Shown here: positions 11,595 through 63,313 of the stretch, piece after piece
How the letters are laid out: each line of letters opens with the position of its first letter
Position numbering within the stretch: position 1 is the first letter of the stretch
IMG/VR virus record: IMGVR_UViG_3300033144_003431
Coordinates: 13,336 to 77,335 of that record
DNA from: a virus
Taxonomy: Duplodnaviria > Caudoviricetes
DNA: 64,000 nucleotides
Reading direction: 5' to 3' (one strand)
The notes under the pieces: model-generated
Databases searched by the model: none
Told to the model about the DNA's origin: nothing
Seen by the model: the letters and a program-made list of their open reading frames with translations, nothing else
Program-made: the position numbers and the translations under genes

Positions 11595-13316
11595 TTATAA
11601 AGCTGTAAGCGTTCCTCTTCTAACGCCAATCCATTCTATTAGAATATTGCATCTACGTGTTACTGCACGTACAGAATTACCACCAGGAGAATTAGATAAA
11701 GTCATAGTCATAGCAACAATATCTCCAGCGTTAGCATCAAACATACATAAACCATTTGCAGTGTTAAATTTAAGATTCGTACTATCATTCAAAATACACG
11801 AAGCATCACTACCAAGGATTGTTTTAGCATTAATTTTGATAGCAGCATCAACACGTTGACCTGTAGAACCAGAGGTTTTTTCAGCACTAGCCGCATACCA
11901 AAGTCTATATAAGCCTGGAACCAATATTTGTATATCATTTATAGAACTACTAATAAAGTGACCATCGGGAATGTTGTTGCCTGCTGATGTAAAATTAATA
12001 TTGGTTGCAGATGTACTAAGTGTTTGATTGCTTGTATTGAAAAATTGACCTACACCAGAACCAACAGATACATTAATGATACCGGAGCCAGTATTAATAA
12101 CAGGAATACCAATACCAAGCGATAATGCTTGTGCTTCAGCCTGTGATGTAGGTGTAGTGATGCCACCATGTAATGGTTCTTGACCATGTACAATCATATT
12201 AACATCACCAAGTTCTAAATCAGAAGATGGATATGTTAACAAGCCAGACATATTAATCTCAGCTTTATCACCATTGGTGCCTAATTTTAACTTATGATTA
12301 CCGGCAGCAATCTGTAAATCTTGAGCACTATCAATAAAAATGGTTTGGCCATTATCATAGGCACGCTGAAGCGTGCCGGTATTGACAAACTCTATTTCAT
12401 CAGATGCAATAACATCAATACTTATACCGCCGCCTTCTGTTAATGTAATATCTGCTTCAGTAGTAGGACTACCTACCTTGGCCCGAAGTGATCGAATGCC
12501 AGGAGCTTGCTCCTGAATCATCTGGAAAATCTGACCAGAATGAGGTATTGGATGGAAACCATCACTATTAGGACCGCCTGCTGCATCATAGTTTGGGCTC
12601 CAGTGCCACGCTTCATGACCTCCAATGCCGCCTAGTCTATACTCAAGCTGGCCACTTCCACCAAAGGGTTGTAGCTTAGTTTGACCGCCAGCTTGAGCGT
12701 TGACACCAGCACTAACGGTAACATCACCCGGCCCAGCACTCAGTGTTGTGTTACCACCAACTGAACTAGTGCCTAAATTGAAATTACCATTAGTAGCAAG
12801 GATTTGTATGTCATCAGTAGATGTAATATTGACGTTGTTGTCTGATGTAATGTTAACATCGCTACTGGCTCCGTTGGCATCAATAATAATACTTCCATTA
12901 ACGGAACGTAAATTAATGCTAGCTTCAGATAGTAGATCTAGTAAACCACTTGACTTTAATTGTAATGGTAGACCATCAAGAGTTTGAATAACAACGTCTT
13001 GATTCTGAAACACTAAGCTATTTTTGAGTGCCTGTCCTAATCGTAAAGGAAAACTACGACCTCCATCAAAAGAGAATTCTAATGATGGAATTTGTCCCGG
13101 TGACAAAGTTTCAAATACAATACCAGATTCATCTCTTCCATTGAATCTTATGACGCCAGAAGTACCATGAATAGGATCATGGAACACTCCACTATTTTGA
13201 TGGATGTGGTTAAAGGGACGAATTTCATCCCCAATAGGACAGCATGCAGTTTGATCAACACCAAGAGATGAAGATCCACTAGCTGCGGGCCAAATATCAC
13301 CAATTACTCTAACCAT
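11595..13316 (-). CDS. probable tail fibre / receptor-binding protein with C1q-like C-terminal head
   Basis: G/S/N/I-rich; N-terminus shared with 13318; IQILVPGLYRL...DANAGDIV C1q/TNF-like pattern. Confidence 0.6.
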   Translation of the reverse strand: MVRVIGDIWPAASGSSSLGVDQTACCPIGDEIRPFNHIHQNSGVFHDPIHGTSGVIRFNGRDESGIVFETLSPGQIPSLEFSFDGGRSFPLRLGQALKNSLVFQNQDVVIQTLDGLPLQLKSSGLLDLLSEASINLRSVNGSIIIDANGASSDVNITSDNNVNITSTDDIQILATNGNFNLGTSSVGGNTTLSAGPGDVTVSAGVNAQAGGQTKLQPFGGSGQLEYRLGGIGGHEAWHWSPNYDAAGGPNSDGFHPIPHSGQIFQMIQEQAPGIRSLRAKVGSPTTEADITLTEGGGISIDVIASDEIEFVNTGTLQRAYDNGQTIFIDSAQDLQIAAGNHKLKLGTNGDKAEINMSGLLTYPSSDLELGDVNMIVHGQEPLHGGITTPTSQAEAQALSLGIGIPVINTGSGIINVSVGSGVGQFFNTSNQTLSTSATNINFTSAGNNIPDGHFISSSINDIQILVPGLYRLWYAASAEKTSGSTGQRVDAAIKINAKTILGSDASCILNDSTNLKFNTANGLCMFDANAGDIVAMTMTLSNSPGGNSVRAVTRRCNILIEWIGVRRGTLTAL

Positions 13317-13317
13317 A

Positions 13318-14103
13318 TTAACAACCTAAAATAATGGCTTGTCCAGCTTGAGAAATATTGAATCCAATAGTAACCGTATTAGCATCAGTAATAATAATAC
13401 TGTCTGGAAAAAGCATGTTAGGCGTGCCTTGAGCATCGAACACTTGGATACTAACGTTCGTAGTATTGAGGCCATGGGTAACTGTCCACGAAGTAGCAGC
13501 ACCAAAGGATTCCGTGTAGCATCGAGCCACAGAGCCAACATCTGTGTTGGAAGCAATAGTCATTGTTTGTCCAACGATATCAACAATAATACCAGAGGCA
13601 CCCACGACACTGATGGAACCTTGGATTGTAGTACCGTTGAAGTCTGTCAGTTCGTTGACCACGCTACCATTGAAGCCCTGGCTGGGGAAATCCCACAGTC
13701 CAGACAGACCAAGCTGATCAACAGCAAACTGAATCGGACTAGCGTTCGCAGTGTCAAAGATAGCTAGAAAGCCACTGCCTCCTGCGGAGGCAAGGTCGAT
13801 ATCACCAATTAAATCCGTATCACCAATGACGCCGACGCTACTAACGCCATTCGCACTGAGATTCTGGAAAGTCAAGCCGCCATCAACCGAGATTTGGAAT
13901 GCACTAGCTTGCTGATTGAATCGGAATACACCCGACTGTCCTTGAACGGGGTCGTGAAAGACACCACTGACCATGTGAACATGGTTAAATGGACGAATAG
14001 ACGTAATATCGAATGCATTTTGTGCATTCGACTCTACATTGACACCCAGATTGGCAAAACCACTGGTTGTCGGTACTAAATCTCCATTAAACGGGAATCC
14101 CAT
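13318..14103 (-). CDS. probable virion fibre/adaptor protein
   Basis: N-terminus paralogous to 11595; C-terminal TVTHGL module paralogous to 15727. Confidence 0.6.
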   Translation of the reverse strand: MGFPFNGDLVPTTSGFANLGVNVESNAQNAFDITSIRPFNHVHMVSGVFHDPVQGQSGVFRFNQQASAFQISVDGGLTFQNLSANGVSSVGVIGDTDLIGDIDLASAGGSGFLAIFDTANASPIQFAVDQLGLSGLWDFPSQGFNGSVVNELTDFNGTTIQGSISVVGASGIIVDIVGQTMTIASNTDVGSVARCYTESFGAATSWTVTHGLNTTNVSIQVFDAQGTPNMLFPDSIIITDANTVTIGFNISQAGQAIILGC

Positions 14104-14132
14104 GATGCTCTCCTTTTATACGACCTTCTTCG

Positions 14133-14147
14133 ATATACAATACACTA
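14133..14147 (-). promoter_or_regulatory. TAGTGTA motif, putative late promoter
   Basis: TAGTGTATTGTATAT overlaps a TAG stop; upstream of AAGGAG and ATG 14103. Confidence 0.45.
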
Positions 14148-15392
14148 CACAGACAGCTCTCGCCAGGCAATTGATCCTTCAATATCTGCATTTGCAGACA
14201 ATGGCCTCACACATAGCACGAGCGTATCAGGTGTGCCATCAATAGCTGATCCAATACGAATAGCGTTATCCAAGGCGTCCGCGACAGAAATCGACCCGCC
14301 ACCCTGGTTACTAGATTTGACCATACCACCCAATAGAACGGTACCATTTGTAACAGTATTCGCGGTGACACCAACAGCGGTTTGTATACAAGAGTTGGTC
14401 AGGTCACTATATGTGAACGTGCTAGCAACAGTAGGGTTTAAAATGATCAGCCATTCAAAATCATCAGCGGTTGCATTGATCACTGAGAGAGCTTCAACTT
14501 TGATACTACAATCTAAACCGCCTGATTTGAGCTGTATACCCACAACGGCATAAATGGTATTTGCCACATTGGCATCAAGATGTGTGCCTTCTGTACTTTT
14601 GTAACGAATAATGCCGGTGTCTAGAACACCACCCTCGGAAATAATCGTAGAACAAATATGTTCAATTTCCGACGCCGCACCCGTGCCATCGTTTTCGATT
14701 TCGTATCTCAACGGTAGATTGGGCGTGCTCATGTATACTTCTGTTGTATTGTTTGCGTTGAGCACTTCATGACAGTAGATGGGAATACCATCGATCACAA
14801 AGCCAAAACGCACACGACCAACACCAAGCCATTCAAAATCCATTACAAGAATTTGTGCTTGAGTGGGATCGAGAGTAATACCCGACGATCCATTACCGTC
14901 CAGCGTGTCTAGGTTCCAGTTAGACTGTGTAGTAGGATCATCTACCGCTGATCCAGTAGTAGATGACCTAATGACAAACTCTAGAGTTCCTTCATTATCA
15001 CGTAGAAAAACACCATTCCCATCATTGAAGGCACCAAAGCCACGAGTAATACCAGTACCGCCGCCCAGGTGATCAAGTACACAGGTCATGAAAATGAGTT
15101 GACTCTTGCCGGGTTGGTAATTGAAACGCATAAACGTTTGACGAACGCGATTACCTGCCGTGTTGAGAGCAACCCCCATAGTAGTGGATGCAGTATTGGT
15201 GCTGTGCGTTGACGTAGTACCTGCTCCACTCACCTCTTGATCGTCCCATAGTAAAGGAGATGCATCAAAAAGCTGAGTGGAATCAAAGATCGTCTGCGGA
15301 TTAGAAACACGCAGACGGGCGAAAGCGTCGATACTGGCCGAATCACCAGTCTTGATAGCCGTAAGACCTGCGGGATATTTATTGATACTCAT
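14145..15392 (-). CDS. probable virion beta-sandwich protein
   Basis: T/G-rich; DAFARLRVS, YQPGKSQ, WLGVGRVRFG; lies in the structural block. Confidence 0.55.
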   Translation of the reverse strand: MSINKYPAGLTAIKTGDSASIDAFARLRVSNPQTIFDSTQLFDASPLLWDDQEVSGAGTTSTHSTNTASTTMGVALNTAGNRVRQTFMRFNYQPGKSQLIFMTCVLDHLGGGTGITRGFGAFNDGNGVFLRDNEGTLEFVIRSSTTGSAVDDPTTQSNWNLDTLDGNGSSGITLDPTQAQILVMDFEWLGVGRVRFGFVIDGIPIYCHEVLNANNTTEVYMSTPNLPLRYEIENDGTGAASEIEHICSTIISEGGVLDTGIIRYKSTEGTHLDANVANTIYAVVGIQLKSGGLDCSIKVEALSVINATADDFEWLIILNPTVASTFTYSDLTNSCIQTAVGVTANTVTNGTVLLGGMVKSSNQGGGSISVADALDNAIRIGSAIDGTPDTLVLCVRPLSANADIEGSIAWRELSV

Positions 15393-15727
15393 TAGCTTAC
15401 CTCTGCTCCAAAGGCCGTGAACGTTAGTGCTGACGCACTAGAGGTTCTTACGGCTAGATTACCTGCTGAATCATCGAGAGCCATAAAGGTATCTAATTCA
15501 ACGGTTGTATTGCCCTCGATTGTGACATCCCAGAAGATCGCTGTCGTTTCATCATAAGTAGTACCATCATCATCAGCGAAGATACGAAACGTCACTCCTG
15601 TTCCTGTTGTGTTGCATACCCAAATTGACTTGACAATGCCCGTCACTCCCGCTCCAGGCGAGTATAGTGACGCAGCCGTTGTATTCGCTGGCCTCAATTG
15701 TCCGAGTTGTTTTTCTTGTAATGTCAT
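15392..15727 (-). CDS. small probable virion protein
   Basis: T/A-rich beta protein coupled to its neighbours. Confidence 0.55.
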   Translation of the reverse strand: MTLQEKQLGQLRPANTTAASLYSPGAGVTGIVKSIWVCNTTGTGVTFRIFADDDGTTYDETTAIFWDVTIEGNTTVELDTFMALDDSAGNLAVRTSSASALTFTAFGAEVS

Positions 15728-16659
15728 TAGCTCACCAATAGTGCGTATCGTCTACACTCTTCCGTGTTTGTATTAGTTCCACCGCATCCTAAGATCACAA
15801 CCTTGCCAGTCTGTGGTGTGTTGAATTCCAAGATAACGTTGTTGAGATCTACAATGCCAACGCGATCTGCGAACAGCTTGTTGTTTGAAGCATCAAAAAT
15901 ATCTACTACTACGTCAGTAGTCCCTAAGTTGTGAGTGACTGTAGTGCTGGTAACTGCTGTAAAACTTTCAGTGAAACATAGCCCACTAGTAGATCCGCCG
16001 CCGCCGCCACTGACTCCAGATGCTCCAGCACCATCAATCAATAGCTCGTTCTCTGCTGAAACCGTGACAGTGACACCGTTCACCCCTGTAATTTCAATTA
16101 CAGGGCCAATCTGCCCGTTGATAGAGCCAATGCCACCTGACGGTGTGATCAGCCCTGAAAGGGCCGCACCGTCTACGATGAAGTTTCCATCCACTTGCTC
16201 AACGTCAATACCATTGACACCAAGTACACCCGATTGAGTCGTTAGGAACGCACCACTTGTCCCGATTAGAACTAAGCCATTCCCCAAAGGAGTAATCTGA
16301 ATTCCACTGACACCAATGAGATCTATGTTTGGACCAGTGTCACCATTGATAGCGTTGATACCACTGCCGTCATGAGCAGTGATTAATCCAGATAGTGCTG
16401 CACCATTAACAACGAATTCACCAGTAACTTGATCAACATCAATTCCGTTGACGCCAATTACTCCAGACTGTGTAAGTGATCCATTGAACCCAATGTTGAT
16501 AATGTTGGCGGCAACGGGAGAGATGATGATGCCACTCGTACCAACGAGAGTTATGACGGGGCCAGTCTGACCATTCAGATTTTGAATGCCAGAACTACCA
16601 GCACCGCCGCCACCGCCTCCGGTGCCACCAACTGATACGATACCACCAATGCTAACCAT
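15727..16659 (-). CDS. Gly-rich repetitive fibre protein
   Basis: Repeats SGI..NG.TGP.I and QSGV.GVNGIDV.QV.G.F.V.GAALSGLIT; C-terminal TVTHNL module. Confidence 0.65.
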   Translation of the reverse strand: MVSIGGIVSVGGTGGGGGGAGSSGIQNLNGQTGPVITLVGTSGIIISPVAANIINIGFNGSLTQSGVIGVNGIDVDQVTGEFVVNGAALSGLITAHDGSGINAINGDTGPNIDLIGVSGIQITPLGNGLVLIGTSGAFLTTQSGVLGVNGIDVEQVDGNFIVDGAALSGLITPSGGIGSINGQIGPVIEITGVNGVTVTVSAENELLIDGAGASGVSGGGGGSTSGLCFTESFTAVTSTTVTHNLGTTDVVVDIFDASNNKLFADRVGIVDLNNVILEFNTPQTGKVVILGCGGTNTNTEECRRYALLVS

Positions 16660-25132: not shown

Positions 25133-25855
25133 TTATGACACTATGGTCAGTCGTTGTAAGGTCTTCTTCTCGAAAAACTGGAGCAGTTCATCGTACACTC
25201 GCTGGCAACGGGCCTGCGAGATAGAGTTTGAACGGTCCTCGATAACTACTACTCGATAACCCGTATCATTCAACTGGTCGATGAGTCTGTTATATCTTCC
25301 CTCAATCTTGGCCTCTTGCTCGTCACCGTACACGGAGACGGGCAAGATAAGTTCTATCACTACCTTCCGAGTCTCTAGAATTATATCAGAAACGTGTCCA
25401 GGTGTCAACCTGATTCCGGTAGTTACGTCCTCTTTCTCGTCCAAGAACACGGCGAGCTTTTCACCAAAACGTGAAAGATTGCCTGGTGTTGGACGATCTG
25501 CCGTACGAAGACGGCTGAGCACACGCGAACGCTGCTTAGCAGAGCGTTGATCCCACTCCTCACGACGTAGTTCTCCTAGTCGTTCCTTCTGTTCTTGACC
25601 TTCGGTAGAGTCCCAGAAGCGACGAGTCCCTTCTGAAATCTTATCCTTAGCGTCAGGTGAATGACTTTTACCAGTCCTTTGATGAGCAGAGTTCTTAAGA
25701 TGCTGAGACTGTGCCTCGCTCTTAGAACGTCTTTCCACACCCAGTTTACGCATATGATAATACAACGTAGACCGTGCCATGTTGAGGTGTTCTGCCATCT
25801 CAGCTAGTGACATGGTTTCGTATAACCCCTCAAGGTTTTCCTTCGTCATTTTCAT
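25133..25855 (-). CDS. HTH + NUMOD3 + Vsr/DUF559-like protein (derived from a homing endonuclease)
   Basis: MSLAEMAEHL HTH; GKSHSPDAKDKIS NUMOD3; DIIL..RKVVIEL; GYRVVVI. Confidence 0.6.
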   Translation of the reverse strand: MKMTKENLEGLYETMSLAEMAEHLNMARSTLYYHMRKLGVERRSKSEAQSQHLKNSAHQRTGKSHSPDAKDKISEGTRRFWDSTEGQEQKERLGELRREEWDQRSAKQRSRVLSRLRTADRPTPGNLSRFGEKLAVFLDEKEDVTTGIRLTPGHVSDIILETRKVVIELILPVSVYGDEQEAKIEGRYNRLIDQLNDTGYRVVVIEDRSNSISQARCQRVYDELLQFFEKKTLQRLTIVS

Positions 25856-26511
25856 TATCGCTTAACGATGTCCCAATTAATGGACAATCCTAGTCGCTGA
25901 GCTTCAATCTTCACTTGGTTAGACGTAGTGCCATACTTGTTGTTGACGAACGACAACCCGCGATACATAATCTCACGACGAAACCTATCGGTTTGCTCAT
26001 ATTGAGAACCAGAGTCAGACTCCATGGGTAGATGCCACTCTTTAGCGGTAATCTCTACGCTATTTTGCTGCTCAGTAAAACGACGTTGACGATCTGCGTC
26101 ATCTTGACGAATCTTGTCACCATCAATCTTCTTACGTGGCTTCGAAATCTCTTCGGATGCACGTCTAGTCTCTAGTGCTTCAAGTCTTGCTTGGGCTACT
26201 TCTTCTGCTTCACGAATCTTTTGTGTTTGCTCTAAAAGCTTAGCCTCACGCTCGTCGTCGCCCTGTCTCTTAAGTTTATTTGCTAACCTACGAGCTTCAT
26301 CTGGACTTTCAACATCAAGTTCCTGCTTGTAAAACTCAATGTCTGCCGAACTCAAGGACAACTTGCGTTCAAACACACCACGACCAGACATTCGAGCCAT
26401 TAACTCTAGAAATTCAATACGCTGTATACGATCTAACATAGGACGAACTCTTGTCGTGCCACGGTTTTTATTTGCCAGCCATGCTCGCTTTTCGCGATCA
26501 CTAGTATTCAT
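25855..26511 (-). CDS. hypothetical coiled-coil protein
   Basis: AAGGAG RBS; charged helical sequence. Confidence 0.65.
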   Translation of the reverse strand: MNTSDREKRAWLANKNRGTTRVRPMLDRIQRIEFLELMARMSGRGVFERKLSLSSADIEFYKQELDVESPDEARRLANKLKRQGDDEREAKLLEQTQKIREAEEVAQARLEALETRRASEEISKPRKKIDGDKIRQDDADRQRRFTEQQNSVEITAKEWHLPMESDSGSQYEQTDRFRREIMYRGLSFVNNKYGTTSNQVKIEAQRLGLSINWDIVKR

Positions 26512-26522
26512 TTTGTTCTCCT

Positions 26523-27593
26523 TTAAAAAAGAAATTCATCGGCTTTGCGATAGACTGAGGGGTCGGGGGATTGTAGATGATAGTCATACTGACACATCTT
26601 GTTCACTAATTGCTCGAAGTCGCACTCAGGCTTCCACCCCAATGTCTCTTGTGCTTTCGAGCTATCTCCCAGAAGTACTTCCACGTCATTAGGACGCATA
26701 TACTTAGGGTTAATCTTGTAGACCTTCTCTGGGTCTAGGTCAAACCATGCACAGCACTCGTTGAAAAAACGTTTTACTGAGTACGTTTTACCTGTGGCAA
26801 TCACGAAGTCGTCTGGTTCGTCGTGTTGCAGCATCGCGTGCATCGCACGCACATAATCGCCAGCGAAACCCCAGTCTCGGCAGGCGTCCATGTTGCCAAG
26901 TTCAACATACTCTTGTAGTCCCCACTTTACGCGGGCTAGATTGCTTGTAATCTTACGTGTAACGAATTCTTCGCCGCGTAAAGGTGACTCGTGATTAAAC
27001 AGAATACCGCACGTCGCGAACATGTCGAACGACCTACGATATACTTGAGTCATGTTGTACCCAAACATTTTGGCTGCCGCATAGGGCGACTCTGGCAGCA
27101 TGGGAGATTCTTCATTAAGACAATAGGTAGATGTATCTTTTGAATAAATATTCCACTTAGGAATACTTAATGGTACATCATAAGAACGTTTAGCAGTATT
27201 ACCAAACTGTTCACTACTGCCAGCTTGATAAAACTTACAGTCAGGTTTCTCTTGCTTAAGAGCTTCAAGACAGTTCAGTACGCCAATACCTGTAATCTCA
27301 GACGTAGCAATCGGGTACTCCCATGACATTGCTACGTGACTCTGTGCTGCTAGGTTGTAGAACTCATCAGGCTTGAATTCCTTAACGGCTTTTTGAACAC
27401 TTGAAATATCGGTGATGTCACCATGAACCAAGTGCAAATTAGGGCTGCCACGTAAGGTGCGTAGTCGTGAATTCGTAGGGATAGACGTACGACGTACCAA
27501 TCCTACGACACGGTAGCCTAACTCCAGTAAGTAGTGGGCCAAATAGAACCCATCCTGGCCTGTAATGCCAGTGATCATTGCTGTTTTAGACAT
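26523..27593 (-). CDS. gmd: GDP-mannose 4,6-dehydratase
   Basis: TGITGQDG, NLAAQSHV, SPYAAAK, GILFNHESP.RGEEFVTRKI, RDWG. Confidence 0.96.
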   Translation of the reverse strand: MSKTAMITGITGQDGFYLAHYLLELGYRVVGLVRRTSIPTNSRLRTLRGSPNLHLVHGDITDISSVQKAVKEFKPDEFYNLAAQSHVAMSWEYPIATSEITGIGVLNCLEALKQEKPDCKFYQAGSSEQFGNTAKRSYDVPLSIPKWNIYSKDTSTYCLNEESPMLPESPYAAAKMFGYNMTQVYRRSFDMFATCGILFNHESPLRGEEFVTRKITSNLARVKWGLQEYVELGNMDACRDWGFAGDYVRAMHAMLQHDEPDDFVIATGKTYSVKRFFNECCAWFDLDPEKVYKINPKYMRPNDVEVLLGDSSKAQETLGWKPECDFEQLVNKMCQYDYHLQSPDPSVYRKADEFLF

Positions 27594-28236
27594 TCTTTTT
27601 TACCTGAGGCACCTTTGTTTCTAACCAACTACAAATACGCTCGTAATGTGTTGATCCTCGCATTACGTCATCACATAAGATAAAATCTACACTATACTTT
27701 GCAAGTTTTGCTAACGTCCATTGTGGTCTATGTGCCTGAGACGGAATTTTGTAAGCATCAAAATCAATCATAACATGATCAATATAATGTATTGCTTTTT
27801 GATCAACTAGATGGTCTAAGATGCTACACTCACTGCCTTCGCAGTTCATTTTCATAACAACAAAGTCATCATCTTGTAAATTGGTCTTGCACCAGTCTGA
27901 TGCTTTTACGAAATCACAATCTTCGCTACCACCTTCGTTGTCCTGGTGATCAGAAAAAACAGAAGCAGCCATAGTATGAGGACTATAAATCGTTAGTGTT
28001 TCATCTTTCACCCATAAACCATATGGACAAATGACAACCTTATCCTGACAGTATTGTTTTTCGGTATAGGTGGAGCCGTGCTCAGTACGATGAGACGACA
28101 AAGTACCAGCATTCAACATGTCGCAATATCGTGCAACTGGTTCAAAACAGTAAATGACATCAAAATCAAAGTCTAGTGCGGCCTCTAGGGACTGACCAGT
28201 ATTACATCCAACATCCAAAAAAACTTTTCTACCCAT
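27586..28236 (-). CDS. FkbM-family methyltransferase
   Basis: FLDVGCNTG, CFEP, MKMNCEGSE. Confidence 0.8.
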   Translation of the reverse strand: MGRKVFLDVGCNTGQSLEAALDFDFDVIYCFEPVARYCDMLNAGTLSSHRTEHGSTYTEKQYCQDKVVICPYGLWVKDETLTIYSPHTMAASVFSDHQDNEGGSEDCDFVKASDWCKTNLQDDDFVVMKMNCEGSECSILDHLVDQKAIHYIDHVMIDFDAYKIPSQAHRPQWTLAKLAKYSVDFILCDDVMRGSTHYERICSWLETKVPQVKKNV

Positions 28237-29218
28237 TGTTTCTATACCATCCAATTGTGCGACGAACCGTTTCTTCTAATTGAGTTGTCGCTTCCCACTT
28301 GAGTCTGTTTTTTGCTCTCGACACATTGAGGCAACGTCTCGGCTGTCCATCGGGCTTCGTGTCGTCCCATACAATGTCAGCGTCATAACCACCGATGCGT
28401 TTGATCATTTCTGCAAGCTCTTTGATAGTAATCTCCTGGCCTGTGCCAAGGTTGATCGGTGCAGGACCAGTATCTTTCACCAGGGCGATACCAATCGCTC
28501 TGGCACAATCACCAGCGTACAAGAATTCTCGTGAGGCACTTCCAGTACCCCACAAGGTCACTTGAGGCACTACCCAATGACCGCCTTCAACCCCCACAAC
28601 GTGACGTTGTGGGTGTTCAAACTTCTTGATCAATGCCGGGATCACATGAGAACTGTACTCATCAAAATTATCCCACTCGCCCGCCATGTTCACAGGAACC
28701 AGATTGGTGACACTCATGCCATACTGGCGGGCGTATGCATCGCCCATTTCCATGACAGTCTTTTTAGCTATACCATAGGGAGCATTAGTCTCTTCTGGAT
28801 AGCCGTTGTGAATGTCCTCTTCTTTAAAAGGAACCGGCGTATGCTTGGGGTACGCACAAACTGTACTGAGATTCACCACCTTGGAGACGCCAGCTAGTCT
28901 GGCTGCCTCCAGGATGTTGATGCCCATCTGTAGATTCTCGTAGATGAACTTACCAGGATTGTCTTTATTTATCCCGATCCCCCCGCAGGTAGCGGCAAGA
29001 TGCACCACTGCCTCAACTTCTTGAGACAACATATACAGAGCTAATGCACGAGCACTACTCAAATACTGGTCACCTTTTTCACTATGCACTATGGCAATTG
29101 TTGGCTCAAGTAAATTTAGTTTTTTACTCGACGGAGTAAAGAGTTCATGCTCACCCTCTAGTTCTTTTACAACGTGTTTGCCAACGAAGCCATTAGCTCC
29201 TGTAATTAATACTTTCAT
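28229..29218 (-). CDS. fcl: GDP-L-fucose synthase
   Basis: TGANGFVG, LAATCGGI, CAYPK, PYGIAK, SHVIPALI, WGTG...REF, KPDGQPRR. Confidence 0.94.
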   Translation of the reverse strand: MKVLITGANGFVGKHVVKELEGEHELFTPSSKKLNLLEPTIAIVHSEKGDQYLSSARALALYMLSQEVEAVVHLAATCGGIGINKDNPGKFIYENLQMGINILEAARLAGVSKVVNLSTVCAYPKHTPVPFKEEDIHNGYPEETNAPYGIAKKTVMEMGDAYARQYGMSVTNLVPVNMAGEWDNFDEYSSHVIPALIKKFEHPQRHVVGVEGGHWVVPQVTLWGTGSASREFLYAGDCARAIGIALVKDTGPAPINLGTGQEITIKELAEMIKRIGGYDADIVWDDTKPDGQPRRCLNVSRAKNRLKWEATTQLEETVRRTIGWYRNNG

Positions 29219-29700
29219 GCTTCTGCAATCACCATAAACGAGTTGTTTAAATCTATACCGCTGATGTGGAACTTTGTAATGTCATGATCAACGAGAAAAG
29301 TCTTAATAATATTTCGCGTCAAAACATGTTTATGTTTTCTATTAAACCAAGGTCTCCAGTACGACTGACTAATGTCGGGTAGATACAAAAATAAAATACC
29401 ACCTGTCTTAATTCGACTGATCCAATGTTCTAGAGTATCAATCCAATTATCTACGTGTTCTAAACAATGGCTTGAAAAAATATAATCAACCTTCCGTGTG
29501 GTTAAATTGTTGGCATCGTCTCCATTTATGATATCGATACCAATTGCACCAGGAAACTTCCATTCTTCTTTGCAGTAACCGATATCATACCCCTCACCTT
29601 TGCATACCTGCTTGGCAAACGGCATGGCAAACTGTGCGGCATTTCCAATTGCCTGAAAAGCCGGATAGCACGTACCGTTATGTTCTATTGTCTCATACAT
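29215..29700 (-). CDS. SAM-dependent methyltransferase
   Basis: GYDIG, DYIFSSHCLEH, KTGGILFLYLP. Confidence 0.75.
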   Translation of the reverse strand: MYETIEHNGTCYPAFQAIGNAAQFAMPFAKQVCKGEGYDIGYCKEEWKFPGAIGIDIINGDDANNLTTRKVDYIFSSHCLEHVDNWIDTLEHWISRIKTGGILFLYLPDISQSYWRPWFNRKHKHVLTRNIIKTFLVDHDITKFHISGIDLNNSFMVIAEA

Positions 29701-30268
29701 TTGGTTTTAAGATAATGTAGCCTTCATTTCTGTAGTCACGAATGATCTCATGAGTGTCCTGAAACATTCTATATATGAAATCAATCCCATCGCCACCCAT
29801 TGTCTTTCTACCAGACCACGTTCCGCCATCAAATGGGCCGTCTTCATAAATACGGAGATCATCAATAATGAAATAGTCACTAGACACATCTCTAAGCCCT
29901 TTAATGATGACAAGTTCGCGTTCTAATGGTAACCTTAAATCCATATTTTTTTCATGATTGTAAGGCAAACCATGCATCTCTCCAGGAAAATGTGCATCTA
30001 GCCAGAAAACTATAGGTTGCTTGTGTCTGTATATGATCTTTGGTAGCACGCTGGAAGACGATCCACATAGTACCATCACTCGTTCGTCATCTTCAAACCT
30101 CTTGGCCGCATTACACGCACACGTAGGATCAATTTCAATAGAGTAAAAGTGCTCAAAATCATACTTCGTGGCATAAGCTAATGAGTCACCATTAGCAGTA
30201 CCAGTCTCTACAAACACTGATCTTTTTCCAATGTGTTCAGATAAATCAAAACTATTTAATGTTCCCAT
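29693..30268 (-). CDS. putative methyltransferase
   Basis: FVETGT, SIEID, FWLDAH, IIDD. Confidence 0.7.
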   Translation of the reverse strand: MGTLNSFDLSEHIGKRSVFVETGTANGDSLAYATKYDFEHFYSIEIDPTCACNAAKRFEDDERVMVLCGSSSSVLPKIIYRHKQPIVFWLDAHFPGEMHGLPYNHEKNMDLRLPLERELVIIKGLRDVSSDYFIIDDLRIYEDGPFDGGTWSGRKTMGGDGIDFIYRMFQDTHEIIRDYRNEGYIILKPNV

Positions 30269-30984
30269 TACAACTCCACGTAGTTAATGTTGTCAAACTT
30301 GAAAATCTTCTTAGGCACTGACATAAAGACAGTCGTAGGAGGCGTCAAAGACATGTGCTGTAAAGCAGAAGACACAACAGCACCACCACTCATTAAACAG
30401 ACGAACTCTTTACAGCTAGCAATACAATCAACATACTCAAAGATAGAACGCACTGTATACGTAGGGTATTTATCTTTTAGATAAACAGAAACCTCGCCGT
30501 TATGTGGTAGAGAAATATCTTGTTCAAAAGCTATTTGCAATACGTCAGTATTTGGCGTGTCACCCAGCTTCTCTACGACAGCCTTCTCTAAAATATCTTC
30601 AACGTATGGATCAGATCCAGCAGATAAGTCTAATAGTACTTTTCCTTGTAGTTCTGGCAGAATCTTTGGCTTGTAATATAACTTAGGATACTTATTGAAT
30701 ACCTTGCCGAAGTGTGCAATTTCCCAATTAGATACAATAGAACTCGTTACTTGTTGCATTGGCACGGGGTGTCCAGCTTGTGCTGGCTCATTGACAAATC
30801 CCTTGATATATGGATGAGTTCTCCACACTAGGTCTTTGATCTCCATGTTACGATAGTTACATTCTTCACTGATGTATACATCATAACCAAGTTCCGTGAA
30901 CAATTCTGGCAGGGTAGAAAACTGCAACTGATCACCAAGACCGTGCCAGTTATACGCACCACCTAAGACTATTCTTTTATTCAT
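30268..30984 (-). CDS. putative glycosyltransferase (GT-B; GT9/GT11-like)
   Basis: GLGDQL N-terminal motif; IASC..FV...SG. Confidence 0.55.
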   Translation of the reverse strand: MNKRIVLGGAYNWHGLGDQLQFSTLPELFTELGYDVYISEECNYRNMEIKDLVWRTHPYIKGFVNEPAQAGHPVPMQQVTSSIVSNWEIAHFGKVFNKYPKLYYKPKILPELQGKVLLDLSAGSDPYVEDILEKAVVEKLGDTPNTDVLQIAFEQDISLPHNGEVSVYLKDKYPTYTVRSIFEYVDCIASCKEFVCLMSGGAVVSSALQHMSLTPPTTVFMSVPKKIFKFDNINYVEL

Positions 30985-43275: not shown

Positions 43276-43316
43276 ACTAACCCCTCCTTTAAATAGTCTA
43301 CTAAGCTGTTAATCAT
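43272..43316 (-). CDS. possible 14-aa coupling mini-ORF
   Basis: MINSLVDYLKEGLV, stop overlaps the next start (ATGA); contains the AAGGAGG RBS. Confidence 0.3.
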   Translation of the reverse strand: MINSLVDYLKEGLV

Positions 43317-43325
43317 ATTTTTTCT

Positions 43326-56907: not shown

Positions 56908-56935
56908 ATTATACGCGAAAGCGTACGAGTGGAAA
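56908..56935 (-). promoter_or_regulatory. sigma70-like promoter for the replication operon
   Basis: TTTCCA-16 nt-TATAAT with GCG before the -10; TACGC-N4-GCGTA palindrome in the spacer. Confidence 0.55.
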
Positions 56936-56936
56936 G

Positions 56937-56970
56937 AAAAAAGAACCCACAAGTTACAACTTGTAGGCTC
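56937..56970 (-). terminator. intrinsic terminator
   Basis: Minus strand GAGCCTACAAGT-TGTA-ACTTGTGGGTTC then TTTTTT. Confidence 0.8.
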
Positions 56971-56990
56971 TCTTATGAACTAAATAACTC

Positions 56991-57701
56991 TTACAGGAAT
57001 TCAAGCTGGATAAAGTATCCGAAGTCGGTCTTTCGACCAGCAGAGGTGGGTGTACCACTCAGCATCAGGTGGAAATCGTGTACGTTTGCTTGGGCACTCT
57101 GATCTTGAAGACTCAATACGGCACCACCGCTAGAAATCTCAGACCATGCAGTAGCACCAGCATAACCATCGGTATCTGCTAACTGAGCAGCTTGGATCGT
57201 GATTCCAGTGGCCAGATCAGAGATATCCGGTACGCCAGACGCAGCAGTAAAGTTTACAGCACGGAACGTTGCCGTTTGTGTGATGACTGCCGTTCCATTG
57301 GGCTCCGCGAAGCGACACAGGAGAGTACCAGACTCAGACGGAATATCTACAAATGTTCCAGCCGTGTATGCAACTCCTGAGTGTTCTACCAGGCTAGCAC
57401 CAGTGAATTTTGCATTGATCATTCGCCCAAGGTCAGCACCTAGAGCATCAGTCCTAAATGTCGAATCCTGATATTGTCCAACAATAACAGCACTGTTTGG
57501 AGCACCGTTAGCACCGAAGAAGCCCAAGCGGTTAGGGCTACCATCTGCCCCCGCTTCCATTTGGAAAATCTCCAAGTTGGGACGAGCACGATCAACCGGC
57601 AACGTATCCGCCGAAGCGTAGTATGCCGCTGGCGTGAGACGCCCCGTGGTCAACTGACCCATTGTTCCGGATCCACCGAAAAATCTAATTCCTGATACCA
57701 T
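56991..57701 (-). CDS. probable abundant virion protein
   Basis: A/G/T/S-rich; has its own promoter motif, RBS and terminator. Confidence 0.55.
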   Translation of the reverse strand: MVSGIRFFGGSGTMGQLTTGRLTPAAYYASADTLPVDRARPNLEIFQMEAGADGSPNRLGFFGANGAPNSAVIVGQYQDSTFRTDALGADLGRMINAKFTGASLVEHSGVAYTAGTFVDIPSESGTLLCRFAEPNGTAVITQTATFRAVNFTAASGVPDISDLATGITIQAAQLADTDGYAGATAWSEISSGGAVLSLQDQSAQANVHDFHLMLSGTPTSAGRKTDFGYFIQLEFL

Positions 57702-57784
57702 TGTTCTTGTTCCTTTTCAAGAAGCAGTTATCCTTTAAACGGAACACGACCCCAAGACTTAGCTATGGTATGTACCAATGCTTG

Positions 57785-57799
57785 CTATAAAATACACTA
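57785..57799 (-). promoter_or_regulatory. TAGTGTA motif, putative late promoter
   Basis: TAGTGTATTTTATAG overlaps a TAG stop. Confidence 0.45.
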
Positions 57800-58567
57800 A
57801 TTGATTGGAGTGTAGACGATCTTAAACGCCGGGTTCGTCTGGGATCCCCGTTGTAGAGGACCAAGGTCCGTGTAGTGAACAATCTCGAAAAAATCAGAAC
57901 GTTCTTCAATACGAAACAAGTATAGACGTTTGTGATGCCAGTTGGTAAATCCAAGAGACTTGGGATCCGCAGCAATCATTAACGCATAAAGACCGGGAGT
58001 GACATGTTCAGCAGTAGCGGGCACTTCTTTGAGGTCTATCAGTTTGGCTTTTTGATAGTAACCAAGACCATGTGGATCAGGCGGCAAATCACGAATTGGT
58101 TTTTCCGTACTGTAGCTTGAACCAGCAGAGTATGATGCTAAGCATGGTTGACTACCACAGCTAGCTGCCAATGATATAGTATCAATCTGGCCACTAGTGC
58201 CTGCACCTAAACCTTGTCGAAATCCATATAAGGTACCACCAATCTCTGCAAGATCATCTGGATCAACAGCACTAATAAATACACCAATAGTCTTGTCCCA
58301 GTGCCAAAAGATTGGATCTAAAGAGAGACCAGAACTATCATACGTGAATCTCCAAATGAAATGCTCGTATACAACATTGCCAAATTGTGGGCTACCATTG
58401 ATGTATATCTTTTTGTCTACACCATCGTCTACATATGTCATCTCGGGAAAAAATACATCTCCTCTACTGCCAGCAGGGCTACTAGGGAAATTTAGGTTAG
58501 CTGTCGGTACCGTAATAACTTCTTCTCGTATGAAGTTCAGATGTTCATCATAAATCTGAAACTGCAT
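57797..58567 (-). CDS. probable virion protein
   Basis: ATG 58567 overlaps the end of the upstream gene; aromatic beta-rich. Confidence 0.5.
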   Translation of the reverse strand: MQFQIYDEHLNFIREEVITVPTANLNFPSSPAGSRGDVFFPEMTYVDDGVDKKIYINGSPQFGNVVYEHFIWRFTYDSSGLSLDPIFWHWDKTIGVFISAVDPDDLAEIGGTLYGFRQGLGAGTSGQIDTISLAASCGSQPCLASYSAGSSYSTEKPIRDLPPDPHGLGYYQKAKLIDLKEVPATAEHVTPGLYALMIAADPKSLGFTNWHHKRLYLFRIEERSDFFEIVHYTDLGPLQRGSQTNPAFKIVYTPIN

Positions 58568-59960
58568 ATCTAATTTCAGGCGTACCAGCAACACCACTTG
58601 GTATACGCACAAGTGTCGTGTGTTGAGACCAGTCCTGAGCAGGGTTGCCTGCAAAACCAGGATCACCAGTGCTCTTTTCTAAGTCAGCATAACGCAACCA
58701 CATGTATTTACCAGTATGTGGTGATATTGCACATAAACCAGATGGAGGAGAAGTTTGTGCGTTTACAAGACTAGTTATATTCCCAAAATCTAAAATCCAG
58801 AGAGCATCATTGAATACTTCAAATCCTTCTGATCCACCAAAAAACATACCACCAGAAGCAATGGGCGGTACATCAACGGGAGTACGTATCTGATCTAATG
58901 GAAACGCCTCGTCGTTATTTGGCCAACGACTAATTATACCAGATTCAACAGCAGTGCGTACATGTTCTCTGCGATTACGTGCTGCTACAGCGTACACGCC
59001 AGATGCAAAAGTGCCAGAAGGCGTGACAAAGATACGAGCAAAATCAACATCAACACCAGAAGACCCAACGGTACGTGGTGCTGCTGTACCATAACCAAAG
59101 TCACCACCAGGACTTGTACCGGATCCTGGAGCATTGGTATACTTGATACCACCATCACTCATTTGTCCTAAGAATACGTCAGTAAAATCCCCTAGTGCAT
59201 AACCATCAATACGAACAAACCCAGAAGCGACATGATCCGTTCTATACAAATCATTACCAGCTAATGAACTGGGTTCCCTTCCTGTGTGAGTAACAAGACC
59301 TGCATCTGTTCTCATGAAGTTAGGGAACATCGGCATGATGGGCACCTGAAAATCATTCACTGTGCCGTTGCTATGATTACCGTGAGCGTTTGTACGTTTT
59401 GGTTGAGCTAAAAATGGATATGGATTCCACATCACTTCTGCATAATCAATGTCAAACAAATATCCTGAAGTGGCTATCACGTCGGCGTCTTCTCCAACAA
59501 TGAATCCTTCATGTGAAGGAGCACGATGGAGATAAATTCCTGGGTCTGCTTGACCGCTCGGACTTTCAGGGTATATCTGACTAAACCAATCTGTCCTATG
59601 TTGTGTAGACGTATAGTTTGAATCTACAGAATAACTGTGAAACAAAAAGTTTAGACTCTTTCTTAGATCAAGAATATAGCCTACATCTGTAGCACTACCC
59701 ACCATAAAAGGGTTGGCCAACGTAGCACCACCCGGCTGTGGTTCATACGTGCCAGATGGTGGCGACAAATCAAATGAACGATAAGCGTACCAATCAGGCA
59801 AGAAGGTAGAATCAAATAACTGTCTGTGTTCAGCAGTATGAGCAAATTGAGCATCCTCAATCGTCACACCAGAGTAAGAAATTTGAATACCTTCTGCTGG
59901 TTGTCGGAATGGTTGCCCATTCTCATACGCATAAGGAATTTGTCCAGAACCAATAACCAT
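58548..59960 (-). CDS. probable virion (tail/baseplate) protein
   Basis: 470 aa, G/P/S-rich, coupled to 59960. Confidence 0.55.
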   Translation of the reverse strand: MVIGSGQIPYAYENGQPFRQPAEGIQISYSGVTIEDAQFAHTAEHRQLFDSTFLPDWYAYRSFDLSPPSGTYEPQPGGATLANPFMVGSATDVGYILDLRKSLNFLFHSYSVDSNYTSTQHRTDWFSQIYPESPSGQADPGIYLHRAPSHEGFIVGEDADVIATSGYLFDIDYAEVMWNPYPFLAQPKRTNAHGNHSNGTVNDFQVPIMPMFPNFMRTDAGLVTHTGREPSSLAGNDLYRTDHVASGFVRIDGYALGDFTDVFLGQMSDGGIKYTNAPGSGTSPGGDFGYGTAAPRTVGSSGVDVDFARIFVTPSGTFASGVYAVAARNRREHVRTAVESGIISRWPNNDEAFPLDQIRTPVDVPPIASGGMFFGGSEGFEVFNDALWILDFGNITSLVNAQTSPPSGLCAISPHTGKYMWLRYADLEKSTGDPGFAGNPAQDWSQHTTLVRIPSGVAGTPEIRYAVSDL

Positions 59961-62900
59961 TAGAGTACCAATTTCTGAATGAATCCAGGCTTTACGATTT
60001 CAATATAATTGACTGTTGCAGTAGCACCAAAGCTACCACTAGCTACACTAAGCGTCACTAAGTACCCTTTATCGCCAGAAGCGGCTAGCTCTGGGAACGG
60101 AATAGGCACTACGTTTCCTGTAAGTGTCCCCGAAGACACAACCTGTCCATTGAAATCTAGTGGTCGGACATTTGCTCTAGCAGTAGACTCACCAGGACGT
60201 GCCACACCAATAATTTGAACAGGCGTTACGCCAGCAGCATCGGTCACTGTACCGTTAATGAAGATCGTACCATCGCTGGCTCCAGGCGACACGGGAGCAT
60301 CACCTTGAACAGCAAGTGTTGTCTTGTCACCAAGAGATACAGAACCATTCAAAACTTCAACAGCAAACACGGCACGATCCGTACCTAAAGCCGATGCCGT
60401 TGGATCAACAATTGTCACATCATATTTAGTAGGCTCATCAACATTAGAGCGTTCAACTTCAACAATAGTACCATTGCCAAACGGACGACCTTGAGTAAAG
60501 TATCTTAGGATAGTGTTGCCTCCAGATAGTTCGAACTCATCCGTATGATACATTGCCTCATCATTAATGTTTAGGAAACCATCAATACAAATAGCACCTT
60601 CCTGAAAGTCAATACTACTACCAGCGGTAGATGGTTTCGTATATAGGTTTTGATCAATCCCTCTATAGCGTTCATCTACTTCGTCACCAGCAGTGCTAGA
60701 AAGAGTAAATATATTGTTCACTTCCGTAATCGTCACGCGAACCGCACGTTCTTCGCGATCAAAGAATAGTGGCGGAACAAATGGATCACCCGGAAGAATT
60801 GGATTCGTCGGAGGTCCAGGAGTAGGATCGAGTAGTGCTAGACTACTGAAGTCAATAGGATTCAGGACGCCATTCAGAACGGCACGTACACGTTCTCCCA
60901 ATGGGGCTTCGCGGCCAAATTTCGGGAAGTACGACTGAATTTTGTATCTGGTTAGGAACCCTTCGGTTCCAAACGAAATGTTCGTCTCACTTACGCCGTG
61001 ACTAATTTCACCATATGATCCAGAAGGACCGATCCCTTGTTCAGCAAAAGCATCAAATGACAGGAGCGGTAATCCAACCTGATTGAAGTCAGCATAGCGT
61101 GAAGAACTCTTGGGGACAATCTTGCCCTCAGCTCTGCGAACTGCACGACTAGACATAACCTGTAAAGATGTTTCATCGCCCACAGGAGAGAATGCCCAAG
61201 GCACAAACTGGTCGTCTAGTTGTACGTCTTCGTCACGTTCGTAATGGAGATCGCCCAATACCCACTGACTTGGGTAAGATTGTCCATAACGATTACGGGC
61301 CTGCACCGGAATAGCTACGCCAGATAGAGCATTATAAACATTCAGGACAACCGCAGGGTTGATGATGTCCAGTGTTGTCTCAGCGTCTAACTTTGCATTA
61401 GTTGTTACCAGTGTAGCCAGTGAAGAAATGATATTGTCAACAGATAGACCACCAGAGGCTCCAGCGTTAATGGGTAATTGACACCAAATGGTTCCTTCTG
61501 GATAATCTTCAAAAGAATACAGTGCATCGCTGCGAGGGTTGATCACACGGTTACCCACGATAGTCAACTCTACAGGAATGTAATGGCTACCATCTCCGGT
61601 GGGATTGAACGGGGGTGCATCTTCTGTCCAGTTACCAAAACCAGCAGGATTACTGTCGCCCTGTGGTCCATAAACCGTATCACCTGGCAAACGACAATAA
61701 GCACTAACACGAAAGTCATCAGTAATAAACGGACTAACTGGACCCAGGTCTCTATTGATTTCATAATCTTCAACGAAAACACCACTAGTTCCCGTTGTGC
61801 CAGAAGGAGATAAAGAGAATCCTTCTGCTTGATTTTCTACGTTAGCCCACGCAGCACCAACAAGATTATATAGTCCCTCAGCATCATCAAACAGTAGTCC
61901 TTCAAGAACATACGAACGACCATAATGCCTAGAAGCATGATCACGTAGTCTTGCGTAAAAAGACAATACCCAGTTTTGTTCTTCGTCTCTACGATTATTA
62001 ATAACACGAATACCAGACTCGGCTGCACCAGTTGCTAGACCGGCCAACGGCATCACTGGATCAAAACGACTCTGAAATGCTGGATGTTGAGCAGCAACAG
62101 ATCCAGCATCAGATGGAAGATCATAGCCAGCAGGATCACTCAGAACACTCGTAGTCTGGTAAATCTTGAAATAAGTCCATTGCTCAATACCCGCAAGAGC
62201 AAGTTGTAATTCTTTTTCTTGAGGGATATATGTGCGATAGAAACCATCAGCATCATAGAAACCAACTGTCAACTTATTCCACGCGGGCTGAAACACAACG
62301 CCGCTCTGTATACTGTTTATATCAGTTAAATCATCGAGTGCTGAAGTGTCTAATCCATCGATAGGACTTAGTAAGTGTGAATTAATAAAACCTTCCTGGT
62401 GACCACCCAAAACGCGGAAGCGTGTAGGATCAGATACAACATCCTGGCCAAAACCAAGCTGCTTTGTTTCATTCAATCCACTGGTGCTACCAAACTCAGA
62501 TACTAGATCAAGGATGTCTGATTCACTGATATCAAACGTTGTTTTCTTATTGATCAGGTTGATACGTTGAGCATCCATGCTCCAATACCAATCATAGCCG
62601 GTATCTAGAAGTATACGAGATAACACTTCATCCAGTTGCGATAAATTAAACTGGAAACGAAGAGCCTCAATGGTACCACCAATATTCTTTTCAAGCTGCT
62701 CTACCGTAGGTAGATCAGACACAGGAACAGAACACTTGCCTTCATTAAAGTGTAAATCAATAGCAGCTAACACCTGACTATATGTAGCACCAAACTGTAA
62801 GATGCGACGATACTCTTTAATGTTAGGATCATTAGGATCGCCACCAACGTCAGTTAGACCATTGACTACTCGATAGCCTCTAGCAACAGATACAACACCA

Positions 62901-63313
62901 CTGGGTGCATCTTCTCCTAGGTCTTCCGTGTGAATCTTTACTCGTCTCAGTTCGTGTCTATTGTCTTCAACTGTAACACTAACAATAGTACCACCAGCAC
63001 TGGCTGTATAATCAGAGTGAGTAACTTTTCCTCTAAAAAAGAAATCACCTACGAAGAGTTCTAGAGAGTGCCCGATATCTGGCAGTTGGCCGGAAGCACC
63101 GTGGAATGCACACGGGTCGCCACATGGCACCCATTCCGTCTGGAACGAATGCGGCGTTAAGTTGAAACCAAATGAAGCATTCACCGACGATAGGAACGCA
63201 CATAGTTGCGATCCCGGTTCGTTACTGGCAAACTGACCGGAAGGCCATTCGATGCCGTTAAGGGGTACACCTACCCCACTAACAACAATGCCGTCTGAAA
63301 CAAGAATATTCAT
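59960..63313 (-). CDS. large probable tail/baseplate protein
   Basis: 1117 aa, acidic beta-rich; N-terminal pattern (FRGKVT, VSVTVED, GYDWY) reminiscent of baseplate hub proteins. Confidence 0.55.
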   Translation of the reverse strand: MNILVSDGIVVSGVGVPLNGIEWPSGQFASNEPGSQLCAFLSSVNASFGFNLTPHSFQTEWVPCGDPCAFHGASGQLPDIGHSLELFVGDFFFRGKVTHSDYTASAGGTIVSVTVEDNRHELRRVKIHTEDLGEDAPSGVVSVARGYRVVNGLTDVGGDPNDPNIKEYRRILQFGATYSQVLAAIDLHFNEGKCSVPVSDLPTVEQLEKNIGGTIEALRFQFNLSQLDEVLSRILLDTGYDWYWSMDAQRINLINKKTTFDISESDILDLVSEFGSTSGLNETKQLGFGQDVVSDPTRFRVLGGHQEGFINSHLLSPIDGLDTSALDDLTDINSIQSGVVFQPAWNKLTVGFYDADGFYRTYIPQEKELQLALAGIEQWTYFKIYQTTSVLSDPAGYDLPSDAGSVAAQHPAFQSRFDPVMPLAGLATGAAESGIRVINNRRDEEQNWVLSFYARLRDHASRHYGRSYVLEGLLFDDAEGLYNLVGAAWANVENQAEGFSLSPSGTTGTSGVFVEDYEINRDLGPVSPFITDDFRVSAYCRLPGDTVYGPQGDSNPAGFGNWTEDAPPFNPTGDGSHYIPVELTIVGNRVINPRSDALYSFEDYPEGTIWCQLPINAGASGGLSVDNIISSLATLVTTNAKLDAETTLDIINPAVVLNVYNALSGVAIPVQARNRYGQSYPSQWVLGDLHYERDEDVQLDDQFVPWAFSPVGDETSLQVMSSRAVRRAEGKIVPKSSSRYADFNQVGLPLLSFDAFAEQGIGPSGSYGEISHGVSETNISFGTEGFLTRYKIQSYFPKFGREAPLGERVRAVLNGVLNPIDFSSLALLDPTPGPPTNPILPGDPFVPPLFFDREERAVRVTITEVNNIFTLSSTAGDEVDERYRGIDQNLYTKPSTAGSSIDFQEGAICIDGFLNINDEAMYHTDEFELSGGNTILRYFTQGRPFGNGTIVEVERSNVDEPTKYDVTIVDPTASALGTDRAVFAVEVLNGSVSLGDKTTLAVQGDAPVSPGASDGTIFINGTVTDAAGVTPVQIIGVARPGESTARANVRPLDFNGQVVSSGTLTGNVVPIPFPELAASGDKGYLVTLSVASGSFGATATVNYIEIVKPGFIQKLVL

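Follow-up and report, generated by a model that had tools for sequence, protein, structure and literature searches.

A serine-specific Ser-Gly-hydrophobic word in the tail-module proteins of an uncultured aquatic phage clade, with candidate structural and glycosylation readings

The DNA analysed here (the window, 64,000 nucleotides) comprises bases 13336-77335 of the 77,335-base IMG/VR virus record IMGVR_UViG_3300033144_003431, which has a CheckV completeness of 43% and derives from an uncultured aquatic phage of roughly 170 kb, in a clade whose members measure 137-178 kb. Two gene groups of the window, 11595-16659 and 56991-63313, have no Pfam families, and several of their proteins are enriched in the dipeptide Ser-Gly (SG) followed by hydrophobic residues. 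An earlier reading of the sequence (the original prediction) took this for the acceptor sequon of a phage-encoded virion O-glycosylation system. The motif is a Ser-specific, protein-level word that is confined to the tail module and enriched about 4-fold there.

The features of the two groups, with proteins named below by their first coordinate and with observed against expected SG counts, are as follows.

59960..63313, minus strand: 1117-aa tail-module protein; SG 16 against 9.3 expected, GS 8
58548..59960, minus strand: N-terminal 470 aa of a 735-aa tail-tip or receptor-binding-like protein; 41 Ser, SG 14 against 4.4 expected, GS 5, TG 3
57797..58666, minus strand: C-terminal remainder of the 58548 gene
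56991..57701, minus strand: 236-aa protein, last gene of the tail operon; 19 Ser, SG 7 against 2.3 expected, GS 2
56908..56974, minus strand: terminator-like hairpin and T-run, then a TTTCCA-16-TATAAT promoter-like site
15727..16659, minus strand: 310-aa Gly-rich fibre-like protein; 25 Ser, SG 13 against 5.0 expected, GS 5
14145..15392, minus strand: 415-aa virion structural protein, phrog_1645; SG-poor, 3 against 3.7 expected
13318..14103, minus strand: 261-aa protein; SG 6 against 3.2 expected
11595..13316, minus strand: 573-aa fibre or spike-like protein; SG 11 against 7.3 expected

The 735-aa protein has an alpha/beta domain at its N-terminus and a beta-propeller-like domain at its C-terminus, and its homologues are 697-746 aa long. 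In the window a 44-nt deletion splits its gene into open reading frames (ORFs) of 470 aa (58548-59960) and 289 aa (57797-58666); the comparison locus L002 carries an intact 733-aa gene, with a protein match 93-96% identical, and the deletion is either genuine, producing a frameshift, or an error of assembly. The elements at 56908-56974 would mark the end of the tail operon, for which their position alone is suggestive, consensus matches occurring at chance density.

No close cultured relative was found by tblastn of 58548, 59960 and 15727 against 50,697 phage records, and the published ‘moraphage’ lineage, considered and rejected, is different from that of the present phage. Gene order is available from the relative G001 (168.8 kb, 91% complete), whose TerL shares only 24-26% identity with terminases of Bacillus siphophages. 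It starts with the terminase, the portal, a coiled-coil protein and a candidate major capsid protein (MCP), which rests on Atlas feature matches to major-capsid clusters and is a lead only, and then passes through several neck and tail proteins to a 1735-aa tape measure protein and proteins of 501, 186, 216, 219, 1620, 1126, 736 and 226 aa. The last four are the counterparts of a 1715-aa LamG/PKD protein, 59960, 58548 and 56991 respectively. Because these orthologues directly follow the tape measure gene, group 56991-63313 is, as judged by gene order, the distal tail, baseplate and fibre module; Pfam and PHROGs hold no family for most of the G001 tail proteins.

In the other group, the C-termini of 13318 and 15727 match virion-structural and head-decoration families in PHROGs, and the G001 counterpart of 11595 has a weak DUF2345 match below the cut-off. 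Protein 14145, which has relatives in cyanophages (cyanomyoviruses) and HMO-2011, serves as an internal SG control. The position of the G001 orthologues and the PHROG matches to virion-structural families make it plausible that the proteins named in the original prediction are virion proteins, as was assumed there.

Two observations concern homologues outside the window. The 1715-aa protein, which carries LamG_3 and PKD domains, lies just past the window's right end (L002:896-6043, plus strand) and has 44 SG against 21.3 expected; its residues 1343-1475 form about 10 repeats of roughly 14 aa with the pattern G-S-G-hydrophobic-hydrophobic-G-G-F. A homologue of 56991, P0144, lies on a 157,945-base contig publicly labelled ‘Hydrogenophaga sp.’, which may point to the host group or result from mis-binning of a phage.

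Recounting Ser, SG, GS and TG in the named proteins reproduced the hand counts of the original prediction exactly. In composition-preserving shuffles (20,000 for each protein), the SG excess is individually strong in three of the six SG-bearing proteins, 58548 (p = 1e-4), 15727 (2e-4) and 56991 (0.003), and marginal in the other three, 59960 (0.015), 13318 (0.08) and 11595 (0.09); the control 14145 gives 0.75. The six proteins pooled contain 67 SG against 31.3 expected (z 6.4 under per-protein composition control), a number reached in 0 of 5000 shuffles, and SG is their most over-represented dipeptide among those with an expectation above 3. These results bear out the claim that composition alone is insufficient. 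The reversed dipeptide GS occurs 32 times against 31.3 expected, and the remaining 72 window proteins contain 69 SG against 71.1 expected. The residue after SG had been described as almost never charged and never Pro; in the six proteins it is charged at one of 67 sites (background 0.15), Pro at none and hydrophobic at 41 (background 0.32), and in 15727 it is V, I, L, F or M at 10 of the 13 sites.

The six proteins were chosen after inspection; the same SG excess is found when their orthologues are taken from 17-18 related loci, and the 58548 family shows it (observed/expected ratio, O/E, above 1.5) in 84 of its 88 full-length representatives. Both TCN and AGY serine codons are used in SG in proportion to their overall usage, so the signal lies at the level of protein and not of DNA, and a DNA-level cause is rejected. 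The SG observation is thus confirmed as real, and is stronger than first stated. Elsewhere in the window, an FAD-dependent oxidoreductase of the DAO family (22316-23524, minus strand), which is a non-tail enzyme, has 7 SG against 2.7 expected (p = 0.011), and a glycosyltransferase (GT) at 36854-38008 has 4 against 0.9.

Over 151 sites, the motif reads [A/G/S/P]-S-G-hydrophobic-hydrophobic: the two positions after SG are hydrophobic at 86 and 70 sites, against 42 expected, and the position directly behind the Gly is depleted in acidic, basic and Pro residues. The motif is restricted to proteins of the neck, tail tip and fibres, encoded downstream of the tape measure gene. With ORF sets defined by greedy longest-ORF calling (at least 100 aa), the 21 neck, tail and fibre ORFs of G001 have an SG O/E of 2.06 and an SG-[VILFM] O/E of 3.83 (75 observed, 19.6 expected), whereas 0.89 and 1.05 are obtained for the remaining 155 ORFs. 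For the window's own record the values are 1.98 and 4.02 in the tail set, and 1.02 and 1.08 in the remaining ORFs. Compared between structural and non-structural proteins, the SG excess thus belongs to the tail sets, with ratios of about 1 elsewhere in the same genomes. Among the non-tail morphogenesis proteins of G001, the tape measure protein has 4 SG against 10.5 expected, the portal 3 against 4.6, the terminase 1 against 2.9 and the MCP candidate 0 against 1.4. A dense glycan coat over the whole virion, as the original prediction had it, is unlikely because the clade's candidate MCP has no SG.

Six control phages were compared: T4, cyanophage S-RIM12, HMO-2011, PIS 136, Pseudomonas phage Y1 and lambda. 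Their genome-wide O/E is 1.08-1.40 for SG and 1.06-1.54 for SG-hydrophobic, and the latter is 2.00 and 1.94 in two clade genomes. The GT families PF00534 and PF00535 had no match in the five controls scanned for them (all but lambda). Two control tail proteins, lambda J and T4 gp34, reach SG O/E values of 1.86 and 1.70, with a hydrophobic residue next in just 2 of 12 and 4 of 12 cases; 59960, 11595 and 13318 are therefore unexceptional by SG count alone.

That lambda J and T4 gp34 reach these values without any GT would suit the explanation that no motif is selected at all, and that the excess arises from post-hoc choice, shared ancestry, repeats and G/S-rich composition, as would the marginal p values (0.015-0.09) of three of the six proteins and the normality, for phages, of a genome-wide SG O/E of 1.08-1.40. 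Paralogy and internal repeats do exist and account for part of the SG signal (15727, the 1715-aa protein and shared modules). By BLAST, paralogy is limited to an N-terminal module of 11595 and 13318 and a C-terminal module of 13318 and 15727, and 15727 has an internal duplication of about 78 aa. The claim that unrelated proteins have converged on the motif accordingly stands for at least four families without BLAST-detectable similarity and fails for the shared and duplicated modules. The pooled z value was obtained under composition control, tripeptide enrichment is about 4-fold for the tail sets and near 1 for the rest of the same genomes, and the excess recurs across families without BLAST-detectable similarity, in which SG serines are conserved well above the mean residue. 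An origin in selection of examples, ancestry and composition is thus already largely refuted, and we consider it very improbable.

Conservation of the SG serines was assessed in the family of the 735-aa protein, which comprises 112 representative clusters at 50% identity, and in four families with orthologues from 17-18 loci; orthologue counts are phylogenetically non-independent. The 88 full-length members of the 735-aa family hold 1150 SG against 513 expected, and 640 GS. In an alignment of 87 sequences that share 20-36% identity with the window protein, SG is retained by half or more of the sequences in eight columns. Only four columns are invariant, S340 among them, and conservation reaches 93% or more for S5, S30 and S165; SG serines average 0.52, against 0.16 for the remaining serines. 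In the four families, SG serines score 0.95, 0.89, 0.78 and 0.70, compared with 0.49, 0.61, 0.37 and 0.36 for other serines, 0.60, 0.71, 0.42 and 0.38 for N, D, T or A before Gly, and 0.66, 0.78, 0.49 and 0.42 for all residues. No such excess for SG serines is seen in seven replication-type families encoded nearby, which have 11 SG sites between them. In 59960, 14 of the 16 SG sites are retained in at least 92% of 13 distinct orthologues, and in the 56991 family (144 clusters) four SG pairs are invariant in 57 homologues at 57-75% identity. Masking the eight conserved SG columns of the 735-aa family removes its SG/GS asymmetry (O/E 1.37 against 1.32). The Gly of conserved SG sites is replaced in 30 of 696 cells, most commonly by Asn (11 of 30), as would suit a positive-phi, left-handed residue.

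SG sites were also scored by secondary-structure context in predicted models. In the AlphaFold2 model of the 735-aa protein (predicted local distance difference test score, pLDDT, 83.8; predicted template modelling score, pTM, 0.89), a strand or helix starts within 1-3 residues after 9 of the 16 SG serines, compared with 17% for positions overall (Fisher 3e-4); the same placement is found for 10 of 45 other serines and for 12 of 57 residues preceding Gly. The weaker model of 56991 (pLDDT 65.5) places three of seven SG serines before such elements, which is not significant. Foldseek searches of PDB and BFVD returned weak beta-propeller matches for the C-terminal part of the 735-aa protein (template modelling score up to 0.48 on the target) and no match for its SG-rich N-terminal domain.

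These features point to a structural role, in which the motif would be a clade-specific turn-to-strand building block in proteins of the neck, tail tip and fibres, a reading to which we give an even chance. A turn or cap would end in the Ser and a left-handed Gly, and the hydrophobic pair after them would start a buried beta-strand or, in fewer cases, a helix. The sites would be conserved for the folding or assembly of beta-rich oligomeric tail proteins, and the abundance of the motif may come from duplication and shuffling of modules among tail genes, together with retention. In known protein structures, the type-I turn with a G1 beta-bulge and alpha-L glycine caps place a left-handed Gly just before a strand; such motifs are found across all proteins and tolerate Asn, Asp, Ser or Thr at the position preceding the Gly. 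The present motif would resemble them in the pre-strand site that the model predicts and in the replacement of its Gly by Asn, and differs from them in that only Ser is used and that the excess is absent from the six control phages. A structural role may be compatible with modification of the same serines.

Several results weigh against the structural reading. A generic turn motif would be expected in other phages as well, and with Asn, Asp or Thr also preceding the Gly; neither holds. In the six proteins, SG alone combines enrichment with a preference for a hydrophobic residue in the next position (P = 0.60); the corresponding P for NG, DG, TG and AG is 0.10-0.32, with O/E of 0.77 for TG and 0.84 for DG. 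Thirty-three large G/S-rich control ORFs have an SG O/E of 1.20 and a P of 0.22, and ORFs with at least four SG-hydrophobic words at p < 0.005 number 1 of 563 in the controls and 9 of 265 in the clade (single-ORF p values in the G001, control-phage and clade-genome scans are Poisson approximations). The 115 Ser replacements at conserved sites (T 18, G 14, A 12, R 11, E 10 and N 8 among them) form a broad set, unlike the S/T/D/N of capping residues. After the conserved columns are masked, the SG-hydrophobic O/E is still 2.14, 1.64 and 2.42, and the highest residual, 2.42, belongs to members in which no more than five ancestral sites survive, a hint of turnover.

The window also encodes a glycan island, and with it a candidate enzymatic reader of the motif. 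Its features are as follows.

25855..45131, minus strand: glycan island, 24 ORFs
31511, 32913, 33565, 36854, 38001, 39738, 41024, 42031 and 43326: nine island ORFs with Pfam GT matches
26523..27593: GDP-mannose 4,6-dehydratase-like, island
28229..29218: GDP-L-fucose synthase-like, island
27586, 29215 and 30981: methyltransferases, FkbM-type and other, island
39074: cupin, island
35051..36118, minus strand: GMP-reductase/IMPDH-like, island
1688..2281, plus strand: tenth glycosyltransferase, GT2, outside the island

The original count of about 12 glycosyltransferases falls to 10 ORFs with Pfam GT matches, and the GDP-fucose synthesis genes reported alongside them are present. The island itself is conserved in the clade: it occurs in eight of nine related records, with 9-10 GT2 and GT4 matches each, including one record that is 100% complete (terminal repeats) and one at 99%, and the ninth, without GT matches, is an 18%-complete fragment of 30 kb. 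Beyond that fragment, no relative without GTs was found among the related records. Since island and motif are both clade-wide, their co-occurrence carries no information.

By a crude criterion applied to the window only (a 19-residue Kyte-Doolittle segment of at least 1.6), a hydrophobic segment is present in 4 of 78 window ORFs and in 0 of 24 island ORFs, so that no lipid-carrier pathway is apparent, and the island looks like a soluble pathway that would act on a soluble acceptor. Enzymes of the known route to glycosylated DNA were sought in five near-complete records: the ThyA-type hydroxymethylase (PF00303) was found in none, and Tet/JBP (PF12851) in none over the cut-off, one 11.8-bit match containing a stop, which leaves that route unsupported. 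Glycosylation of protein by the island is therefore plausible as judged from its genes, but carries no tie to SG.

On this basis S-G-hydrophobic may be the acceptor of a Ser-specific cytoplasmic O-glycosylation by the soluble GT island, with the neck, tail-tip and fibre decorated and the capsid not, which we hold to be possible though on balance doubtful. It would explain a motif that is Ser- and clade-specific and occurs in at least four tail-module families without BLAST-detectable similarity, and it draws on an island of nine GTs, GDP-fucose genes and methyltransferases that is all-soluble and accompanied by none of the DNA-glycosylation enzymes sought. The residual SG-hydrophobic enrichment with its signs of turnover is also in its favour, and a precedent for Ser modification exists in the reported TibC/AAH heptosylation of beta-helix repeats. 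The sites themselves, however, are mostly ancient and fixed, lying just before strands or helices rather than shifting, and the replacement of Gly by Asn points to a conformational role. Non-tail proteins show no clear avoidance of the word (SG-hydrophobic O/E 1.05-1.08). No GT of the window reaches an NCBIfam cut-off and none has a recognisable protein-acceptor domain, and a GT9 heptosyltransferase (PF01075) is absent from the window proteins and from five of five records (the window's own and four relatives). Were the serines glycosylated, the glycan would tentatively be fucose-containing and methylated, carried on the tail tip, neck and fibres, as a phage counterpart of autotransporter hyperglycosylation.

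The same clade- and Ser-specificity, and the same confinement to one functional module, could reflect a reader other than a GT, such as a tail-assembly chaperone, a protease or another modification of serine. A ClpP-family protease gene is present, but no candidate reader emerged, and conserved internal sites in well-folded domains are unlikely cleavage sites; such a reader seems to us improbable.

The closest comparison for Ser glycosylation is with the bacterial autotransporter heptosyltransferases (BAHT; TibC/TibA and AAH/AIDA-I). According to an eLife 2014 paper (PMC4358343), TibA is heptosylated on Ser and not on Thr, one site being N-S-G-G-A-V-I; the likeness would lie in a soluble cytoplasmic enzyme that attaches many sugars to a beta-rich surface protein, and in Ser-only sites at turns before hydrophobic strands. 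The present island has instead GT2/GT4-type enzymes and GDP-fucose synthesis in place of ADP-heptose, with GT9 in none of the five records, and its substrates would be phage tail proteins. In mycobacteriophages, GTs encoded by the phage reportedly act on its own virion proteins (Freeman et al. 2023, as summarised in PMC12619734), with the glycans at the C-termini of capsid and tail-tube subunits. Phage-encoded GTs are common to both systems (10 ORFs with Pfam GT matches here); the present case differs in that the candidate sites are internal, fixed and in the tail tip, neck and fibres, the MCP candidate having no SG, and in that the 10 GTs are accompanied by sugar-nucleotide synthesis. Capsid glycosylation in giant viruses of the chlorovirus type, as described in PMC9614988, uses virus-encoded GTs and GDP-sugar enzymes, and shares with the window a virus-encoded soluble glycan island that includes the GDP-mannose dehydratase pathway; the differences are that these viruses infect eukaryotes and that their capsid protein is the target. 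In the literature searched, no description of an SG-type or other sequon on phage tails was found, nor anything of use on dipeptide statistics. For glycosylation of the chlorovirus type, we know of no SG-type acceptor word.

The window further encodes replication proteins (a DnaE-type polymerase, a DnaB-type helicase, a primase and a UvsX-like recombinase), together with nucleotide-metabolism and other genes for ribonucleotide reductase, ThyX, MazG, PhoH, peptide deformylase and the ClpP-family protease. Host-like genes lie in 6522-9389 (plus strand), 35051-36118 (minus strand) and 50356-50943 (minus strand), and comprise methionine aminopeptidase, peptide deformylase, PhoH, the GMP-reductase/IMPDH-like gene inside the island and the ClpP-family protease gene adjacent to the polymerase. 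Structural, GT and replication genes are interspersed with a high load of homing-type endonuclease ORFs (LAGLIDADG, HNH and EndoVII-like), at 16659-17303, 63310-63921, 32482-32916, 40585-41040, 34470-35054, 21834-22316, 54400-54816 and 5596-6009, three of them inside the island.

Sigma-70 region-2-like factors are encoded at 3915-4466 (plus strand) and 45128-45877 (minus strand), the latter directly upstream of the island and on the same strand. TGTATT and an AT-rich stretch begin three minus-strand intergenic regions (14104-14144, 19520-19597 and 57702-57796), which sit just upstream of 13318, 18827 and 56991, and may represent a phage promoter word. A comparison of the tail genes with the island for a shared promoter motif gave nothing usable, the intergenic regions being too few.

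If the motif is purely structural, one lineage has fixed an unusual Ser-specific turn-to-strand solution across several tail families, and short enriched words that lie beside GT islands should be called sequons only with caution. If the serines carry sugars, phage virion glycosylation would gain its first defined acceptor sequon, and would do so in an environmental clade that is widespread; the glycoproteomes of uncultured phages would then be predictable from sequence, and the tail module would point to glycan-shielded or glycan-mediated host recognition.

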